Made by a program: the position numbers and the translations under genes. DNA of 64,000 nucleotides from a virus (lineage: Duplodnaviria > Caudoviricetes): positions 32,001 through 96,000 of the IMG/VR virus record IMGVR_UViG_3300028887_000080. One strand, 5' to 3'. A model generated the notes under the pieces. It was not told the origin of the DNA, searched no databases, and saw nothing but the letters and a program-made list of their open reading frames with translations. Shown here one piece after another: positions 14,131 through 23,158 of the stretch. The stretch's first letter is position 1. The number at the start of each line of letters is the position of its first letter.

Positions 14131-14643
14131 CTATACCCAAGTTATCTTTTTGTATTCTCCGTCTTCGTAGTAACCGAACGAAAAGCACATCGGGGTTAGG
14201 AAAACTGGTTCTGTGATGATGTTCTTTTTGTATTTGTCCGCATACCCCTTGTTCATATATGCGATTGTGATATGGGGTTTGTAGGTCGTGAACTCCGTGT
14301 GGAGGGTGTAGTTCGCCTTTATCGCGGAGTTTGTCGTATGAAGCGCTTGGCATACCACGCCGCATTTCAGGACGTCGTAGTTGTCGTTGCTGAACACGCT
14401 CACGTCTGAAAGCATTGTCTTGTAGTCGTTGAGAGGAAGCAGGTGCTTTTTCAACTGTTCAAGGTTGACGTCGTTGTCGAGACAGGGAGCGAGCGTGACG
14501 TGCGTCTCGGTTTCAAGTCCATAGACGAACGGTGAATCTGGGTCGCTCGGTTTGTACAGTTCATAGTCCTTGATGCTGTTTTGGATTCCCTTTATGTAGT
14601 CAGGTGTTTGGAAGTCCACCATCAAAAATGCGTATTTGTCCAT
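14131..14643 (-). CDS. 2H phosphoesterase (Acb1/gp57B-like or RNA 2',3'-cyclic phosphodiesterase)
   Basis: Two HxT motifs: THVTL and PHITI; 170 aa; located at the end of the tRNA operon. Confidence 0.8.
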   Translation of the reverse strand: MDKYAFLMVDFQTPDYIKGIQNSIKDYELYKPSDPDSPFVYGLETETHVTLAPCLDNDVNLEQLKKHLLPLNDYKTMLSDVSVFSNDNYDVLKCGVVCQALHTTNSAIKANYTLHTEFTTYKPHITIAYMNKGYADKYKKNIITEPVFLTPMCFSFGYYEDGEYKKITWV

Positions 14644-14695
14644 ATCTGTTTTTTTTATTATTGTCGGTTTGTATTTATAAACCGCTGCTTGTTAG

Positions 14696-14769: not shown

Positions 14770-15069
14770 TTACACGTCCTTTGACATAAGGACGCCTATT
14801 TTTCCTTCCGTGAAAAGTCTTGCCTGTTCGAGCGTGCAAAAGATTGCGGGTCGTTCGTTGAACTCATTGTCTATGCAGATTGCGACTCTCGGTTCGGACG
14901 GTTCCTCCACATCCTCAAACCAACCGCTTCCGTTCATACAGACCTCGCTTTCATCATCGACCTCATATACGACATAGCGTTTTGCCGTTGAAATTTCAAT
15001 GCTTCCGTCAATGGCGGTTCCGAAAATATAGTTCACGCTTTCTTCTTTGATAATGTATTTGCTTTCCAT
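14770..15069 (-). CDS. Hypothetical protein within the tRNA operon
   Basis: 99-aa ORF with A-rich leader. Confidence 0.6.
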   Translation of the reverse strand: MESKYIIKEESVNYIFGTAIDGSIEISTAKRYVVYEVDDESEVCMNGSGWFEDVEEPSEPRVAICIDNEFNERPAIFCTLEQARLFTEGKIGVLMSKDV

Positions 15070-15095
15070 ATTCTTGATTTTTGTTTTTTAATTTG

Positions 15096-15166
15096 TTGTC
15101 GGTCAGAGGGTCGAACTCCGATTAGCGGAACCAGAATCCGCTGTGCTGCCATTACACCAACCGACA
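15096..15166 (-). tRNA. tRNA-Gln(CTG)
   Basis: gcgga-TT CTG GT-tccgc. Confidence 0.9.
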
Positions 15167-15168
15167 TT

Positions 15169-15369
15169 ACAAGACCATTTGAGACAATGCCGCCAACTCT
15201 TCCACGTCGTTTCCGATACGCTTAAACAAGGGGTTACATCAATGCTCACCCCCCAACGGACAGTACGTCCGCTGTATCCGACCCGTATCTCAAATCTTGG
15301 GGTGACGTCACTTCCCCGTGAGGACACGTTGTTCTCGGCATAGTCGTCATTGCCCACTTTGGTCATTGT
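15169..15369 (-). ncRNA. Putative ~200-nt structured RNA between tRNA-Gly and tRNA-Gln
   Basis: Ends pair (acaagacca / tggtcattgt, one bulge); internal atttgaga/tctcaaat and cggac/gtccg helices. Confidence 0.5.
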
Positions 15370-15370
15370 G

Positions 15371-15442
15371 AGCGGTGGACGGGATTTGAACCCGCAACCC
15401 CGACCTTGGCAAGGTCGTATTCTGCCGTTGAACTACCACCGC
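15371..15442 (-). tRNA. tRNA-Gly(GCC)
   Basis: cgacc-TT GCC AA-ggtcg. Confidence 0.93.
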
Positions 15443-15588
15443 ATCGTCTCTTTTCATCAGACTTCCTTGCAATATCCGAATCTTGTACTACCGGGCATCA
15501 ATAAGCACATCCGTCCTATTGACATTTTGAGACACACCCGTTTAATTGTTGTCTATCGTGAAACAATCTAAAGACCGCCTATGTGTTT

Positions 15589-15661
15589 GCAAGACCATAG
15601 GATTTGAACCTCCATTTCATCATTGGACGGATGATATTCTACCAAATTGAACTATCGCCGC
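15589..15661 (-). pseudogene. Degenerate tRNA-like element (loop CC GTC CA)
   Basis: D-loop agttcaatttggtagaa and GGTTCAAATCC present, but acceptor and T stems are mismatched. Confidence 0.55.
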
Positions 15662-15688
15662 CGGACGAAATTTTGGACATTTCGTTTG

Positions 15689-15759
15689 CAGGAGTGGAAG
15701 GACTCGAACCTCCGTCTACGGTTTTGGAGACCGTCGTTCTACCACTGAACCACACTCCT
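15689..15759 (-). tRNA. tRNA-Trp(CCA)
   Basis: acggt-CT CCA AA-accgt. Confidence 0.93.
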
Positions 15760-15785
15760 ATTCACCGTTGAACTACAGACTCAAG

Positions 15786-15868
15786 TGCGGACGGTGAGAG
15801 TCGAACTCACACGGGGATACCCCCACCACCCCCTCAAGGTGGCGCGCCTGCCATTTCGCCACGTCCGC
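15786..15868 (-). tRNA. tRNA-Leu(GAG)
   Basis: ccacc-TT GAG GG-ggtgg; long variable arm. Confidence 0.92.
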
Positions 15869-15879
15869 ATAATCTCATA

Positions 15880-16046
15880 GATGCAACCAATCACTTTCCG
15901 CTTTGGCGGTGTATTCGGACTACGGGTCGATTACCTCCGACGTCCTAATTACGTCCATTCTCTCTAACGGGCACTCGATGTCCATCAGTGAAGTTCTATT
16001 CGGGGCGTCGTCACGTTTCCCGCTACGGGTCTATATTGGTTGCATC
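15880..16046 (-). ncRNA. Putative ~167-nt structured RNA
   Basis: Perfect 12-bp closing stem gatgcaaccaat / attggttgcatc. Confidence 0.55.
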
Positions 16047-16187
16047 CGTTTAAGAAATTCGGCAAACGAGTTTTGTATCGTCATCTTAAACTAAATGTTG
16101 ACACAACCGCATCGCATTCTGCGGTCGCTTTGAAACGCCAACAATGTGCCCACAACGAAGGGTCACAAATCTTGCCGTATCCCATTG

Positions 16188-16261
16188 TACCGGCAGGTGG
16201 ATTTGAACCACCGTCTCCGCCTTATGAGGGCGGCGCAAGAAACCGACTCCGCTATGCCGAT
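16188..16261 (-). tRNA. tRNA-Met/Ile2(CAT)
   Basis: ccgcc-CT CAT AA-ggcgg. Confidence 0.88.
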
Positions 16262-16266
16262 GTTTT

Positions 16267-16432
16267 GAAAACAAAAACCAACAGGTGTTTTGATTAAACT
16301 ATGTATTCCTTTTTCTTGCTTATCGGGTCTCGATGACCCGTGGAACCCACCTCTGATTTGCCTTGCAGCGTCAGTGATTCTCTGTTGTCAATGCACGGAA
16401 CAGTTATGCCCTATCGCAATGTTTTTGTTTCC
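16267..16432 (-). ncRNA. Putative ~165-nt structured RNA
   Basis: Closing stem aaacaaaaac / gtttttgttt; internal cgggtc/gacccg hairpin. Confidence 0.4.
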
Positions 16433-16435
16433 AAG

Positions 16436-16524
16436 CGGAGGGGGTAGGATTTGAACCCACGGAACCCTTGCGGGTTCGGCGGTTTTCAAGACCGCTGCAA
16501 TAAACCAGACTCTGCCACCCCTCC
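16436..16524 (-). tRNA. tRNA-Ser(TGA)
   Basis: gcggt-CT TGA AA-accgc; long variable arm. Confidence 0.93.
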
Positions 16525-16587
16525 AAAAATACTCCTGCTTTAAGGCAAGTCAGGTGAACCTTTGATATATCATTGATATATCGCTTG

Positions 16588-16661
16588 TGGAGCGTGGGGG
16601 AGTCGAACCCCCGACCCCCTGCGTGCAAAGCAGGTGTTCTGGCCAACTGAACTAACGCCCC
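16588..16661 (-). tRNA. tRNA-Ala(TGC)
   Basis: cctgc-TT TGC AC-gcagg; G3:U70. Confidence 0.94.
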
Positions 16662-16774
16662 GTTTACAACCTTTACAGACCGTATGGTTACACACGGGAA
16701 GTATAACCGAACCATACGTCGGTGTGCGCTGAACCCGTATCCGCAAACGGCAGCAACCGTTCCTAATCGGACAT

Positions 16775-17160
16775 CACGGACTTTACTTTTTTATGCACCT
16801 CGCCTTTACAGCGGCACGCACACCATTTCACGCAAACCATAAAGATTGTGGACAGACTCTTTGGTGTTTATCGCTTTGTCTCCGACTTGCATCGTCGCAC
16901 TTGCGGTGTGCGAGACCGTGCCTTCTTTTTTATATATGTCATCCCTTCGGGCATTGGGCAGAAAGGAAAACATAATATATTTGAGAATTTCTCTCTCACG
17001 CGCTTGCGTGGTTCCTGTCGGAATGCTCCTTTCCAATACATTGCAGGGAACACGTCCCCGCGACCGACAGTGGTCGCCCATATATCATTTCAGGGCATTG
17101 CTCCGACAACGGGATGAAAAAGCAAGCGAATCTTATGTTCGCCAAAAAATAAAGTCCGTG
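16775..17160 (-). ncRNA. Putative ~386-nt large structured RNA
   Basis: 11-bp perfect closing stem cacggacttta / taaagtccgtg; several GNRA-capped hairpins on the minus strand. Confidence 0.6.
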
Positions 17161-17166
17161 TCGGAA

Positions 17167-17244
17167 TGGTAGCGCGGACGGGACTCGAACCCGCAATCTC
17201 CACCTTGAAAGGGTGGCGACTTAAACCAGTTTGTCCACCGCGCC
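17167..17244 (-). tRNA. tRNA-Glu(TTC), CCA encoded
   Basis: ccacc-CT TTC AA-ggtgg. Confidence 0.93.
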
Positions 17245-17397
17245 GTTCAGTGCGGTATAACCCGCACGTCCAACTGTTTGTTCATCTTGGAAAGTTGTCA
17301 ACCTGCACGACTTCCTTTTTTGAGTTTTCCGCGCACTGCCGAGTTGTACGGACGAAACTTGAGAATGAAAAAAAAATAGTCAAATAAAAAAACATTG

Positions 17398-17471
17398 GGT
17401 GGAGAGTGGGACTCGAACCCACGACCTACGGAACCACAATCCGCCGTTCTGCCAACTGAACTATCCCCACC
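17398..17471 (-). tRNA. tRNA-His(GTG) with encoded G-1
   Basis: gcgga-TT GTG GT-tccgt; G-1:C73. Confidence 0.93.
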
Positions 17472-17475
17472 AAAT

Positions 17476-17898
17476 AAGTGATTGATGTGTTGTTACACCA
17501 AATTCTCCGACGGCGGTTTCACGGACATCTCAACGGGCGACTAACTTGGCAACTACGCCCTGCGCCGAACTTTTCTTCATAGTTCGGACACCCCCGCTTT
17601 CGCGGTGAAGATTAAGAGCAATCTCCTCTCGTACTGTCGCTCCTTATCCGTCGTACCTGTCTCCGACACCGAATTGCACTTGCGCCACATCAAGGAGACA
17701 CCCGTGTTTCAACGGGATTTTAATTGAGGACAACCGTGTATTCGTGCTTGTGACTCCGTGAGGTTGCCCATACCGCACCAAGTTCGCTGGTATGGTGTTC
17801 TTGTGACGTAAATCAACTATGCGCATAGTAGTATGTAGTCACTACCTCTTGAAACTCTTTAGAGGATGGACACTATCAGTCCCACCTTTCAATCACTT
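17476..17898 (-). ncRNA. Putative ~423-nt large structured RNA
   Basis: 10-bp perfect closing stem aagtgattga / tcaatcactt filling the Ser-His spacer; many internal hairpins. Confidence 0.65.
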
Positions 17899-17899
17899 G

Positions 17900-17987
17900 C
17901 GGAGAGTGAGGGACTTGAACCCCCGCGCCGTTTTCACGACCTATCTGTTTAGCAAACAGACCCCTTCACCGACTTGGGTAACTCTCC
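17900..17987 (-). tRNA. tRNA-Ser(GCT)
   Basis: tctgt-TT GCT AA-acaga; long variable arm. Confidence 0.92.
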
Positions 17988-17992
17988 AAAAA

Positions 17993-18152
17993 AGCAAAAT
18001 CTTACACAAGACGAGTTGCGCTTTAACTCTCTTGTCCTTCGCTGTGGCGAGACCACGGATTGCTCCGCACTTTTGTTGTTAAACTTCCACAGACCCCATT
18101 CTCATCGGAATCCCAAGCGGAAAAGATTTTATCCGCACCCTTTGATTTTGCT
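17993..18152 (-). ncRNA. Putative ~160-nt structured RNA
   Basis: 9-bp closing stem agcaaaatc / gattttgct; internal gcgga/tccgc and acaaga/tcttgt helices. Confidence 0.5.
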
Positions 18153-18155
18153 ATG

Positions 18156-18299
18156 CTGTTATGGCGGGACTCGAACCCGCAGTACCGCAGTAATCCTGAA
18201 CCGCGGGCAACCTTTACGTCTCACTCCCAAGACTTCTAATCTGACCGACAATGGTGACGGTTTCAAGCGAGGGTTTGCCAATTCCCCTTCACATAACAG
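18156..18299 (-). ncRNA. Expanded tRNA-like RNA (~144 nt) with insertions in the anticodon and variable regions
   Basis: Acceptor ctgttatg/cataacag, Leu-like D-loop aattggcaaa, perfect T arm gcgggTTCGAGTcccgc; ~85 nt between the D and T arms. Confidence 0.7.
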
Positions 18300-18318
18300 T
18301 TGTGTGTTGATGAATTTG

Positions 18319-18397
18319 TAGGGGAGGTGGGACTCGAACCCACATACACCAATTACAGAATTAACGACTGTATATAAGACAGGACTGATACACCCCT
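18319..18397 (-). tRNA. Atypical tRNA-Ile(TAT)-like with truncated D arm and long variable region
   Basis: aggggtg/ctcccct acceptor; ctgt-CT TAT AT-acag; intact T arm. Confidence 0.7.
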
Positions 18398-18485
18398 ATG
18401 CGATGCCGAGAATCCCTGTCATAAATTTGCCCGCCAACGGCGGACACCCATCAACAGATGGGGCAAGGCATTGCTTGTGAAAGAG

Positions 18486-18559
18486 TGCTCCCAGCAGGAC
18501 TTGAACCTACGACCCCCTGATTATGAGTCAGGCGCACTAACCAACTGTGCTATGGGAGC
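18486..18559 (-). tRNA. tRNA-Met/Ile2(CAT)
   Basis: cctga-CT CAT AA-tcagg. Confidence 0.9.
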
Positions 18560-18565
18560 ATAGAA

Positions 18566-18927
18566 ACAAGGCGGTTTTTTTAGCGAGTACAAATTAACGG
18601 TTTGTTGCTTGAAAATAGTGGTTTGCGGAATCCGCCTTTATATGTTCAGTATTATGGAAAAAGAGAAAATTCAAAAAAACAAGGCAGGGGTTGTTAGCGA
18701 GTACAAATTAAAAGTTTGTTGCTTGGATAGGTTTGCTGCACCTGCCTTTATTATTCAGTATTATGGAAAGAGAAGATTCAAAAAAAAAACAAGGGAGATT
18801 TGTTGCGTTTCAAAGTTACAGTTTGATGCCTACAATGTTTGCTGAACCTCCCTTTAGATACAAGGTGATTTTTTTGCTTGGTTGAATTTGGATTTCACTT
18901 TGCAATGCGTTTGCTGCAATCACCTTT
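18566..18927 (-). ncRNA. Tandem array of four small covarying hairpin RNAs carrying anticodon stem-loop mimics (18566-18639, 18679-18749, 18789-18855, 18860-18927)
   Basis: Minus-strand consensus AAAG-stem-nnCAGCAAA...ASL...stem'-CTTGT; stems differ in sequence but keep pairing. Confidence 0.75.
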
Positions 18928-18939
18928 TTGTTTTAATTG

Positions 18940-19012
18940 TATCCCCGCAGGGACTCGAACCCCAATCTTGAGTTCCGTGGACTCACATTCTAATCCATTG
19001 AACTACGGGGAC
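18940..19012 (-). tRNA. tRNA-Arg(ACG)
   Basis: tgagt-CC ACG GA-actca (C33). Confidence 0.88.
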
Positions 19013-19117
19013 TTATATGGGCGGGGTTATCGTCATACCTTACTATAGTTATACGCCGAATATGATGTTATCCCCTGCGTAAACTTGTTCCAATGTACGG
19101 TTGGAGTTTACGTTTAG

Positions 19118-19190
19118 TGGGAAGGGGTGGAGTCGAACCACCATCATCGGATTTTCAGTCCGCTGCATAGACCTGCTTTGCTACCTTCCC
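19118..19190 (-). tRNA. tRNA-Phe(GAA)
   Basis: cgga-CT GAA AA-tccg. Confidence 0.9.
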
Positions 19191-19269
19191 GTTTTGCGGA
19201 TGTGTGTCTCGCGACAGGCGTCCGCAACTGATAAATATAAAAAAACACAAATAAAATGATTATCACAAG

Positions 19270-19340
19270 AGCGGCATATCAGAATCGAACTGACATATCC
19301 AGATTGGAAGTCTGGCGCACTGCCTTTGTGCTAATGCCGC
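19270..19340 (-). tRNA. tRNA-Gly(TCC)
   Basis: ccaga-CT TCC AA-tctgg. Confidence 0.9.
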
Positions 19341-19363
19341 GTGAGGCGCGCGTCCGCGCCCGT

Positions 19364-19427
19364 ACAAGAGGCGTGATGAAATGACTTATCCCAAAAGTTT
19401 TTCTTGTTTTTTGCCGAATGCCTCTTT
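19364..19427 (-). ncRNA. Fifth copy of the CAGCAA hairpin RNA family (ASL loop TT GGG AT)
   Basis: acaagaggc...ttgccgaatgcctcttt on the + strand. Confidence 0.65.
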
Positions 19428-19432
19428 TTTTG

Positions 19433-19546
19433 CCGCGGAGATTGGAGTCGAACCAATGTCAGGAGTTCCCAATAGCGAAAATTGCTGATAGGTTCTTTGA
19501 ACAAGAATCATTTGCTACTCCCGTTCTGCCGTTAAACTACTCCGCG
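19433..19546 (-). tRNA. tRNA-like gene with ~43-nt anticodon-loop insertion (Pro TGG if excised)
   Basis: cgcggag/ctccgcg acceptor, normal D and T arms, ggagt/actcc stem enclosing a 50-nt loop that ends TTGGGA. Confidence 0.7.
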
Positions 19547-19551
19547 ATGTT

Positions 19552-19885
19552 CCGACATAATGTGGTGTGAACCGCTGAAACCACAATCGCACTTTCGCTG
19601 TCGGGGCGAACTCCGCTTTGTTTCTCCGGAGCGGAAAACCATCACTGCATTCGTTTTGATTAACAATATACAGCATCACGGTATCGCACCGTGCTCTCTC
19701 CGCAGGGTCGCGGGCGTGTCACTTGACACCTATGTTGCAGTGATTGTATGTCCTCCCGCCCGTGCCTTTGCACATTATCTGCGGATTTGTATGGACACGT
19801 TTCAAGGTTGTGCTGAAACCCGACGCCATTCTAAATGTTATTTTAAGGAAGCGTTTAACTCTCCTAAAACTATGTGCGGCATAGT
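19552..19885 (-). ncRNA. Putative ~330-nt pseudoknotted RNA
   Basis: Helix 19641-49/19736-44 crosses helices 19699-705/19779-85 and 19710-16/19757-63. Confidence 0.55.
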
Positions 19886-19890
19886 CTTTG

Positions 19891-19961
19891 TTGAACTTGG
19901 AGGACTCGAACCTCCACCAACAGAACCAAAATCTGTTGTGCTGCCATTACACCAAAGTTCA
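19891..19961 (-). tRNA. tRNA-Gln(TTG)
   Basis: acaga-TT TTG GT-tctgt. Confidence 0.93.
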
Positions 19962-20038: not shown

Positions 20039-20042
20039 GATG

Positions 20043-20198
20043 TGGGCAGGGAAGGATTTGAACCTCCGAACCCGAATGGGAGCGGATTGGCAATGTGGGA
20101 AATTACGAATTTCCGAAACTTCATTATTCACATTGCGGTTTAACGTGTAACCTTCACGTAGTACAGTCCGCCGCGTTTAACCACTTCGCTACCTGCCC
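20043..20198 (-). tRNA. tRNA-Tyr(GTA) interrupted by a 73-nt intron-like insertion (20089-20161)
   Basis: gcgga-CT GTA [73 nt] AA-tccgc; otherwise canonical Tyr body with variable arm. Confidence 0.85.
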
Positions 20199-20210
20199 TT
20201 ATAGAATTTG

Positions 20211-20281
20211 TGGACATTACGGGAATCGAACCCGCTTTCACGCCTCCCGTTGCAGTGGGACACGCTACTGCCGTTATGCCC
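20211..20281 (-). tRNA. Atypical tRNA-Cys(GCA)-like with shortened D arm
   Basis: tccc-a CT GCA A c-ggga; intact T arm; imperfect acceptor. Confidence 0.6.
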
Positions 20282-20292
20282 TTGTTGTTATG

Positions 20293-20364
20293 TGTCACGG
20301 ATGAGACTCGAACTCACAATCCCCTGATTAAAAGTCAGGTGCATCGCCATTATGCTACCGTGGC
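20293..20364 (-). tRNA. tRNA-Lys(TTT)
   Basis: cctga-CT TTT AA-tcagg. Confidence 0.92.
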
Positions 20365-21189
20365 ATTTTTTATTTTTTGTATTATATTTTTAATGAATCG
20401 TTCTTTACATTCTTTTGGCATTTTTTTATACCGAGACCATCTTATTCTAAATAAACACGTCCATCCATTTTTTTGTAATACTTCAGTTCGTTTTTTGTCG
20501 TGTTTAACAATACGCTTGTCCAAATAATGTTGTTCCCCATCAACTTCAAAATATGTTTTTGTTATTGGAAATGCAAAATCCAAAAAATACCCAAATTGAT
20601 AATAATTTTGTTCATATTCAATATGTTCATCATTCAAAATTTGCTTAAAATACTTTTCACAATAACTATCACCGTGTGAATGATGATTTAATACATAAGG
20701 AACTTTATTCGGGTGCTTTTTCAAATACTTTTTTCTAATATCAGAAAGGTGCTGTTTTTCTTGTTCAGTATGCTTTATTCCTTTTTGTGGACTTTTTAAT
20801 TCACCGTTTTCATAACGGAGTTTAAGTGAAATTGCTGCTTGTTTAACACGCTCATCTGTCTCTTTTGTTAAACCTTTGTTCCACGGACGCTTACCCATCA
20901 TACCATTACGATATACTCTATTTTTGTTTTGTGGACACTTACATTCGTGTGCTTTAAGTGATTTTACACTATAACATTGTTTTCCACAGTATTTACAAAC
21001 AAGACTTTCATCTTTGTCGTAATGATAATTTTCATTACTATGTTTTTTTGAATATACCGCATAACCACAAACGTGATTTTCCAAAGGTTTTCTATTTGGA
21101 TTCAACTTACAAGTTCTTTCGTGAATACCCAATGCACAAGAACGTTTTAACATTTTGTTACAATACCTACAAATATACATCATTTCCAA
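20350..21189 (-). CDS. Free-standing putative homing endonuclease (C2H2-like Zn fingers + NUMOD-like segment + DUF559/Vsr-like nuclease)
   Basis: CRYC..HERTC, CKYCGK..HECKC, PWNKGLTKETD, KHTEQEK, YFLDFA..YFEVDGEQHY..D..R...L...GW..FRIRW; much lower GC than neighbours. Confidence 0.75.
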   Translation of the reverse strand: MEMMYICRYCNKMLKRSCALGIHERTCKLNPNRKPLENHVCGYAVYSKKHSNENYHYDKDESLVCKYCGKQCYSVKSLKAHECKCPQNKNRVYRNGMMGKRPWNKGLTKETDERVKQAAISLKLRYENGELKSPQKGIKHTEQEKQHLSDIRKKYLKKHPNKVPYVLNHHSHGDSYCEKYFKQILNDEHIEYEQNYYQFGYFLDFAFPITKTYFEVDGEQHYLDKRIVKHDKKRTEVLQKNGWTCLFRIRWSRYKKMPKECKERFIKNIIQKIKNATVA

Positions 21190-21236
21190 TATATTATTAT
21201 ATTTATAAGTACGCTAACATTGAGTTATCATCATTG

Positions 21237-22053: not shown

Positions 22054-22125
22054 CGGTCACACTGGGAATCGAACCCAAATCTCGTGATAGACAGTCACGC
22101 ATCTTAACCTTTAGACGATGCGACC
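22054..22125 (-). tRNA. tRNA-Asp(GTC)
   Basis: cgtga-CT GTC TA-tcacg. Confidence 0.92.
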
Positions 22126-22135
22126 GTTTGTCGGT

Positions 22136-22538
22136 TTATGTCCGCGCCTCTCCACGACGCTTCCAATCTTTTGCATAATTTCAGCGATTTATACACGCAG
22201 TTCCGACTACTTTGCGTGTGCCCCGTAAAAATGTGGAACATACATCTACGGACATAACTCCCCGCAGCGGAGCAGGCGTTTTTTCACGCAACGCCCCTTG
22301 CGTACCATTACGGCGGTATTGGAGACGCCGCAAGGAATTTGACCGTTTTTATGGAGACCGCCACCTGACAGGCGGTTTGTCCAATTTCTTTTTAGAATGC
22401 GGATTTCCGATAACCTTGCATTCCATTTTAAGCGTTTTTAACTTGTCAGGATTTTTGGCGCGTGTTACGCCGTTTTTGGCGCGTGTTACGCCCACGCCTT
22501 ACGACCGCGACGCGAACTTATAAGAACGCACCGGGGGA
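22136..22538 (-). ncRNA. Two adjacent putative structured RNAs (~22136-22257 and ~22259-22538)
   Basis: ttatgtccg/cggacataa and tccccg/cggggga closing stems; internal cctgaca/tgtcagg; 20-nt tandem duplication at 22452-22492. Confidence 0.45.
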
Positions 22539-22542
22539 TTTG

Positions 22543-22782: not shown

Positions 22783-23158
22783 TAAAAAAAATCAACTTTT
22801 TTACAGATATTGAAAAAAATCTCAAAAAAAAATCGGAGGTTGCTTTCACATACCTCCGATTCTATTTGGTTTCAGTGGGGTATGGTCATTCTTCCTTTGA
22901 GTATTCATTATCTTGTTTCTGTCCGAAACTTGCACCATTGCCGTCAAAAATGCCGCAATACGCCTGTTTCGGGGATATGTGCTTCCCTGTTTTTGGCGTG
23001 CGGTTGTCGGTTGCGATGTTTGTTTTGGAAAGAATCATTGAGTTCTTTTTATTATTTTTTCGGAATATATTTATACAAGTGTTTTTGCACTGTTTCCAAT
23101 GGGTGTGAAAATGGTGCAAAACCTCTGAAAATGAATATATCGCAGATATATCTGACAT

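Follow-up and report, generated by a model that had tools for sequence, protein, structure and literature searches.

The window analysed here, a stretch of 64,000 nucleotides, comprises bases 32001-96000 of a 124,221-base IMG/VR virus record that is estimated to be 39% complete. The best DNA holders of this phage are bovine gut metagenomes from many studies, and the fragment belongs to an uncultured cattle-gut jumbo phage. Between 14695 and 22615, on the minus strand, it carries an array of 27 tRNA genes (found with ARAGORN and Rfam) that cover most amino acids, and ARAGORN adds three or four tRNA-like genes when insertions are allowed. Between tRNA-Ser(GCT) and tRNA-His(GTG) of this array lies a unit at 17472-17899 that is ORF-free and flanked by tRNA genes on the same strand. 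In a preliminary description of the DNA it had been singled out as a candidate large RNA at 17476-17898. These coordinates do lie between both tRNAs, but 17476 is the outer end of the 3' arm of a helix, and the gap between the tRNAs starts at 17471. In the reading direction of the minus strand, the features are:

17899-17987, minus: tRNA-Ser(GCT), directly upstream of the RNA (ARAGORN; Rfam tRNA model, 58.1 bits)
17471-17898, minus: gap between tRNA-Ser(GCT) and tRNA-His, 428 nt
17472-17899, minus: candidate non-coding RNA of 428 nt, from a predicted RNase Z cut to a predicted RNase P cut, both ends being predictions
17397-17471 including G-1 (17397-17470 in ARAGORN), minus: tRNA-His(GTG), directly downstream (Rfam, 65.5 bits)
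17359-17396, minus: U-rich tract AAUGUUUUUUUAUUUGACUAUUUUUUUUU right after tRNA-His, as read from the sequence; a possible terminator or processing site

Borders of the stretch and contents of the array

The discriminator of tRNA-Ser is the G at 17900, which is followed by CAA, and on reading the sequence no CCA is encoded after either tRNA-Ser or tRNA-His. RNase Z acts on precursors of tRNAs that lack an encoded CCA, cutting behind the discriminator; in the precursor of tRNA-His, RNase P cuts before G-1. The missing CCA after these two tRNAs therefore fits RNase Z-type 3' processing. At the other border, tRNA-His may have an encoded G-1 in the G at 17471, which is able to pair with its C73. 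The T4-type late promoter word TATAAATA occurs 24 times in the whole window, against 1.3 copies expected. Most copies are found shortly upstream of genes, and those on the strand of the array are at 23068-23075, 21200-21207 and 14672-14679. The copy at 21200-21207 belongs to a DUF559-type endonuclease gene located inside the tRNA array (20350-21189, minus), which has homologues in the arrays of two related phages (L002 and L003) and over which the RNA depth is about zero in the runs examined.

It is worth noting that the array holds further elements resembling tRNAs. With introns allowed, and only then, ARAGORN reports tRNA-like genes with insertions of 45-73 nt at 18155-18298, 19432-19546 and 20042-20198 (all minus), and therefore some of the 'spacers' hold interrupted or degenerate tRNAs. 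One of these genes also scores 47 bits with the Rfam tRNA model (as 20043-20198), and the spacer 19341-19889 holds such an insertion-bearing gene. The same ARAGORN setting finds no hidden tRNA in the stretch itself. At 20210-20592 ARAGORN calls a 'tmRNA' that overlaps tRNA-Lys(TTT); the Rfam tmRNA model reaches 16 bits (cut-off 47) on 20208-20281, and the element is probably a tRNA-like remnant, not a tmRNA. There is no suppressor tRNA among the 27 tRNAs of the array; the relatives L003, L010, L012 and L016 have a tRNA with anticodon CUA, which hints at amber recoding in those lineages and not in the present phage. The gene adjoining the array downstream (14131-14643, minus) encodes a 2H phosphoesterase of the 2'-5' RNA ligase superfamily (PF13563). 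In relatives, the 2H phosphoesterase is followed by an RNA ligase (PF09414/PF21189), suggesting that the array is linked to a module for the repair or splicing of tRNAs.

Transcription, closing helix and pairing of spacer ends

The stretch is transcribed, being covered by contigs from three metatranscriptome studies (assembled contigs, which are blind to strand, ends and processing):

17441-17838: RNA contig of X6, identical to the window, depth 26.1
17504-17881: RNA contig of X21, with 9 substitutions and 3 gaps
17507-17879: RNA contig of X20, with 32 substitutions and 8 gaps (375 nt), in addition to a deeper contig over 17641

The X6 contigs that are identical to the window come from one strain and vary in depth from 2.8 to 26.1 along the array, with the highest value at 17472-17899. 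Depth is 22.7 over a neighbouring spacer of 505 nt (16662-17166), 12.6 over 22121-22460 and 9.65 over 19362-19913, the last from a slightly divergent contig, and the stretch and its 505-nt neighbour exceed some of the strain's other spacers in depth by a factor of 8-9. In X2, a DNA run, contigs of the phage have a flat profile, with depths of 7.8-10.9 across the array. Uneven depth in RNA together with flat depth in DNA argues for a real difference in RNA accumulation, and against DNA that was carried over. The X6 contig extends 30 nt into tRNA-His, and some unprocessed precursor or carried-over DNA must therefore be present. In two of the studies the contigs end at about 17505 and about 17880; these positions are most likely due to branching of the assembly graph between strains and are not RNA ends. 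A further spacer at 18560-18938 is AT-rich (35% GC) and has almost no RNA depth when compared with the GC-richer large spacers. It contains a tandem duplication of about 110 nt, with copies at 18577-18611 and 18691-18725 (91% identical) and at 18645-18679 and 18754-18788.

The preliminary description had been based on a perfect 10-bp terminal stem and a series of internal hairpins. The stem is indeed present, with a mean pair probability of 0.97, and the hairpins listed all occur in the minimum-free-energy fold, most of them at pair probabilities of 0.8-0.99. From the 5' to the 3' end, the predicted elements (P, pair probability) are:

17889-17898, minus: 5' arm of the closing helix, AAGUGAUUGA, 1 nt from the start of the tRNA-Ser trailer, mean P 0.97
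17868-17882, minus: hairpin GGAC/GUCC, P 0.95
17845-17865, minus: hairpin CCUCU/AGAGG, P 0.92
17803-17842, minus: extended hairpin GUGAC/GUCAC with inner ACUAU/AUAGU, P 0.94 and 0.89; also a palindrome in the repeat search
17701-17716, minus: hairpin CCCGU/ACGGG, P 0.95
17659-17699, minus: hairpin GUCUCC/GGAGAC, P 0.82
17609-17649, minus: hairpin GGAU plus AGGAGCGA with UUGCUCUU plus AUCU, P 0.77-0.80; contains the variant site 17641
17594-17605, minus: tetraloop hairpin CCGC-GAAA-GCGG, P 0.98
17562-17591, minus: hairpin CCGAACU/AGUUCGG, extended by GUG/CGC, P 0.99 and 0.95
17476-17485, minus: 3' arm of the closing helix, UCAAUCACUU; next come AUUU and G-1 of tRNA-His

The folding energy of the stretch has a z score of -2.24 against dinucleotide shuffles, about the same as that of the opposite strand (-2.58), and of -1.3 against 126 other 428-nt windows of the phage after correction for composition. 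Long-range helices are ill-determined, with pair probabilities of 0.2-0.5, and the remainder consists mostly of local hairpins and one closing helix. Since the stability of the fold is near the background of the phage, the number of hairpins is unremarkable by itself; what is remarkable is the terminal helix. The earlier proposal is partly supported, in that the stretch is non-coding, is transcribed and matches no known family, but the modest stability (z -2.2 and -1.3), the ill-determined long-range helices and the homologues that were not found do not bear out a multi-domain RNA of a new class. The pairing of the two ends amounts to -15.2 kcal/mol, stronger than 99.4% of mismatched 5' and 3' ends within the array of this phage.

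This pairing of ends is not restricted to the stretch. It was evaluated for the 22 spacers of the array that have at least 60 nt, with 5' and 3' ends taken from different spacers as the reference. Seven of the 22 have ends whose pairing exceeds that of 98% of mismatched ends. The mean over the array is -9.1 kcal/mol compared with -6.1 kcal/mol for mismatched ends, and none of 2000 permutations was as strong (p<0.0005). In 39 spacers of related arrays the effect is weaker, at -6.8 against -5.4, and again none of 5000 permutations reaches it. The most special-looking feature of the stretch, its terminal stem, is therefore a general habit of the spacers of this array and not a signature of the stretch, which at 17472-17899 is the largest closed unit of the array. 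Four of the seven end-paired spacers have the size of a tRNA (75-93 nt), and of these four at least 20199-20291 has a T-arm-like element and looks tRNA-like. Two others of the seven are mid-sized ORF-free spacers; 15167-15369 (203 nt) and 16262-16434 (173 nt), both minus, have multi-branch folds with closing stems of about 20 bp that run from the first base after one tRNA to one base before the next. Their ends pair at -19.5 and -21.3 kcal/mol, above every mismatched pair, and the predicted stems are long enough for RNase III sites. The sequences of the closing stems are unrelated between spacers, which argues against the inverted ends of one family of mobile elements and for selection at the RNA level. 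The best-folding spacer of the array is the ORF-free 505-nt neighbour (16662-17166, minus), with z scores of -3.9 against shuffles and -2.6 against background and a long-range helix of 17 bp (16775-16791 with 17144-17160).

Proposed release from the tRNA precursor and alternative readings

We infer that the stretch is a non-coding cassette within a polycistronic tRNA precursor of a jumbo phage with T4-like promoters. In the reading that we put forward, and to which we give an even chance, it is a discrete, lineage-specific RNA that RNase Z and RNase P cut from this precursor and that is made stable by the helix between its ends. The stretch would be transcribed together with the flanking tRNAs. 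Judging from the anatomy of the locus, RNase Z would cut after the discriminator of the CCA-less tRNA-Ser(GCT) and free the 5' end of the RNA, and RNase P would cut before G-1 of tRNA-His and free its 3' end. The released RNA of 428 nt would have its ends locked in the 10-bp helix, with one unpaired nucleotide on the 5' side and four on the 3' side, and the helix should protect it against nucleases that require single-stranded ends. Such shielding would explain why the stretch accumulates above most other spacers. The position between tRNAs, the non-coding character, the RNA contigs, the closing helix and the same architecture in other spacers speak for an excised RNA. The modest stability of the fold, the ill-defined long-range helices and the homologues that were not found speak against it.

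It is also possible, if on the doubtful side, that the stretch is transcribed filler, in other words a fluid and functionless spacer in which the helix keeps neighbouring tRNAs folding independently and presents their ends to RNase P and RNase Z, and in which the interior drifts. The end pairing, which is common to the whole array and not particular to the stretch, and the stability of the interior, which is near background, would be expected of such a spacer, as would the pattern seen in relatives, where conservation does not reach beyond close strains and the arrays are quickly rearranged. A blastn search of 50,697 phage records (INPHARED) gave tRNA matches only, and exact words of 21-31 nt from the stretch were found neither in IMG/VR nor in JGI metagenomes or GTDB genomes, in searches that may pass over records very close to that of the window. 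Related arrays, chosen via homologues of the 2H phosphoesterase at 14131-14643, contain no homologue of the stretch according to nhmmer and blastn. Near-identical assemblies of the phage exist, and as no homologue was found outside such near-identical strains, the RNA is confined to close strains. A neighbouring protein of 776 aa likewise has no relatives in IMG/VR. Even among close strains the stretch is variable: there are strain variants in X2, X20 and X21, and strains differ by up to about 10% (the 32 substitutions and 8 gaps of X20), again as filler would. One variant, 17641 T>A, is found in the strains of both X20 and X21 and falls on a predicted A-U pair, the partner of which is at 17617.

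In the nearest array that was fetched, L002 (84% protein identity in the 2H phosphoesterase), the tRNAs are already in a different order and the contig breaks off within the 505-nt neighbour. In L003 (62% identity) tRNA-His and tRNA-Ser(GCT) are also separated by a spacer, of 466 nt, with the two tRNAs in reversed order; this spacer has no sequence similarity to the stretch and no closing helix. L014 has a gap of 422 nt upstream of tRNA-His, and here the sequence encodes a small protein and a tRNA-like gene. The 505-nt spacer at 16662-17166 is 84% identical to that of L002, a value equal to that of the adjoining tRNA-Ala. Compensatory change in its minimum-free-energy pairs, compared with L002, is not above that of shifted controls. 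In one local hairpin of this spacer, picked by eye, G-C is replaced by A-U at two pairs and one pairing is broken; this is not counted as evidence. What filler does not readily account for is the X6 depth of the stretch and of the 505-nt neighbour, many times that of other spacers of the same strain. In addition, an insulating hairpin needs far less than 428 nt, and several such large, ORF-free and expressed spacers are kept by the phage.

Another potential origin of such a stretch is an insert into the array that has since decayed. It may once have been the gene of a homing endonuclease, an intron or some small mobile element bounded by inverted ends. Genes for DUF559/HNH endonucleases and TnpB elements occur in tRNA arrays here and in relatives, and the terminal inverted repeat of 10 bp might be taken for the two termini of such an element. 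We nevertheless consider a remnant improbable. Six-frame ORFs of related loci, which do detect the 2H phosphoesterase and the DUF559 endonuclease in the array, reveal no protein-coding remnant in the stretch, the one weak match (E 6e-4) starting in tRNA-His. There is no second copy of the stretch in the 124-kb record, so that it is not a repeat; the unrelated closing stems of different spacers do not fit a single family of elements; and there is no match at E <= 10 to the core models of group I and group II introns or to RF01998, a group II intron domain.

The stretch might instead encode a small protein. The longest ORF on the tRNA strand, which is the transcribed strand in our model, starts with ATG and has 60 aa (17644-17826, minus), and genes for small proteins do occur in some spacers of related arrays, an example being L014 5923-6180 ahead of tRNA-His, with a protein of 85 aa that starts with MTHILRINE. 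Neither the 60-aa ORF nor other ORFs of the stretch have an exact match in a collection of 15 billion proteins, and the 60-aa ORF has no short words in common with any of 5.8 billion protein clusters. No ORF is opened on the tRNA strand by reading TAG as Q or TGA as W (codes 11, 4 and TAG=Q were tried). The ORF is not called in public assemblies, and in a 95-kb assembly of this phage made independently, 15069-19560 of the window is free of gene calls. It spans only 43% of the stretch, and we regard this ORF, or a shorter one, as a very improbable explanation. The earlier description of the stretch as non-coding has thus held, with a longest ORF of 60 aa, no gene call and no protein homologue.

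The earlier statements that the stretch lacks the features of tmRNA and the signature of RNase P were found to be correct as well. Rfam 15 (4227 models) was run over the window with gathering scores as the threshold, and over the array and the isolated stretch with a limit of E <= 10, in the latter case with relaxed filters; all three scans gave tRNAs and noise only. ARAGORN finds no tmRNA in 17471-17898, and the sole match to the Rfam tmRNA model, of 7.7 bits, is on tRNA-Ser. The bacterial RNase P models of type A and type B have no match at E <= 10. ROOL (RF03087, threshold 99.1 bits) has no match in the window, the array or the stretch at gathering score or E <= 10, and no Rfam family, GOLLD included, matches the stretch. 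ROOL was also absent from the whole 124-kb record, a search that is weakened by control genomes likewise giving none. YrlA-type Y RNA (RF02553) was considered and rejected, its weak matches overlapping tRNAs only (17301-17450 has 19.2 bits, with a cut-off of 69), and no gene for Ro60 (TROVE) is present in the 124-kb record, itself estimated to be 39% complete. The phage, tRNA-adjoining and rumen context that ROOL and GOLLD have (PMC5737381, PMC12286853) would suit a strongly diverged member of ROOL, GOLLD, RNase P RNA, tmRNA or Y RNA, but we find such a membership hardly credible: none of the 4227 models matches the isolated stretch, no ROOL was found in the record, there is no TROVE/Ro60 gene, and the stretch, at 428 nt, falls short of both ROOL (581 nt on average) and GOLLD (more than 800 nt).

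Known phage RNAs and the meaning of the array

Extra stable RNAs in the tRNA clusters of phages, such as RNAC and RNAD of T4, have been known for fifty years. The lengths of RNAC and RNAD are roughly 120-140 nt, so they are much shorter than the 428-nt stretch, and for the latter it should be kept in mind that processing is a prediction. Also called species 1 and 2 RNAs, they are non-coding, are encoded among phage tRNA genes, are transcribed from the tRNA region and have no known role (PMC3014915). The present stretch is similarly found in a phage tRNA region, in a phage that uses the T4-type late promoter word.

Two larger RNAs offer a comparison with regard to genomic context. ROOL is a large ORF-free RNA of phages and prophages that is often found beside tRNA islands and is abundant; it was first found in cow rumen metagenomes, and its function is not known (PMC5737381, PMC12286853). 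GOLLD, likewise a large RNA of phages or prophages, is located near tRNA genes and in some cases contains tRNAs itself (PMC12286853), and both ROOL and GOLLD form RNA-only cages (PMC5737381, PMC12286853). The stretch resembles them in being located within a 27-tRNA array of a viral contig. It differs from ROOL in having no covariance-model match and in its shorter length and is not a member, and it differs from GOLLD, whose members often exceed 800 nt and have a conserved 3' region, in its 428 nt and in the lack of any Rfam match.

With respect to the proposed mechanism, the leader-trailer helices of bacterial rRNA operons, which are the stalks cut by RNase III, provide another parallel. There too, the ends pair in a polycistronic precursor of stable RNAs, joining the processing sites and defining the unit to be excised. 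However, from what is established about classical RNase III sites the 10-bp helix of the stretch would be too short for one, and the flanking cuts, located where the stretch adjoins the tRNAs, would instead be the work of RNase Z and RNase P.

A more far-reaching proposal concerns four spacers of the array, 16662-17166, 17472-17899, 19341-19889 and 22126-22541, which are 416-549 nt long, ORF-free and strongly expressed. These could represent new, fast-evolving classes of large structured phage RNAs that are released by tRNA processing, sealed at their ends and comparable in role to ROOL and GOLLD, for example as assemblies or as decoys against host translation or tRNA-targeting defences. We offer this tentatively and think it rather unlikely.

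As it stands, the stretch is a single orphan case and provides one more expressed example. If the reading as an RNA excised by tRNA processing is true, the tRNA arrays of uncultured jumbo phages would be platforms for the expression and processing of many lineage-specific large RNAs, in which the tRNAs serve as punctuation and the terminal helix as a device for stability. A simple rule would then be sufficient to search for others, namely sequences that are ORF-free, bounded by tRNAs, paired at their ends and abundant in metatranscriptomes, and there would be more large natural RNAs worth solving.
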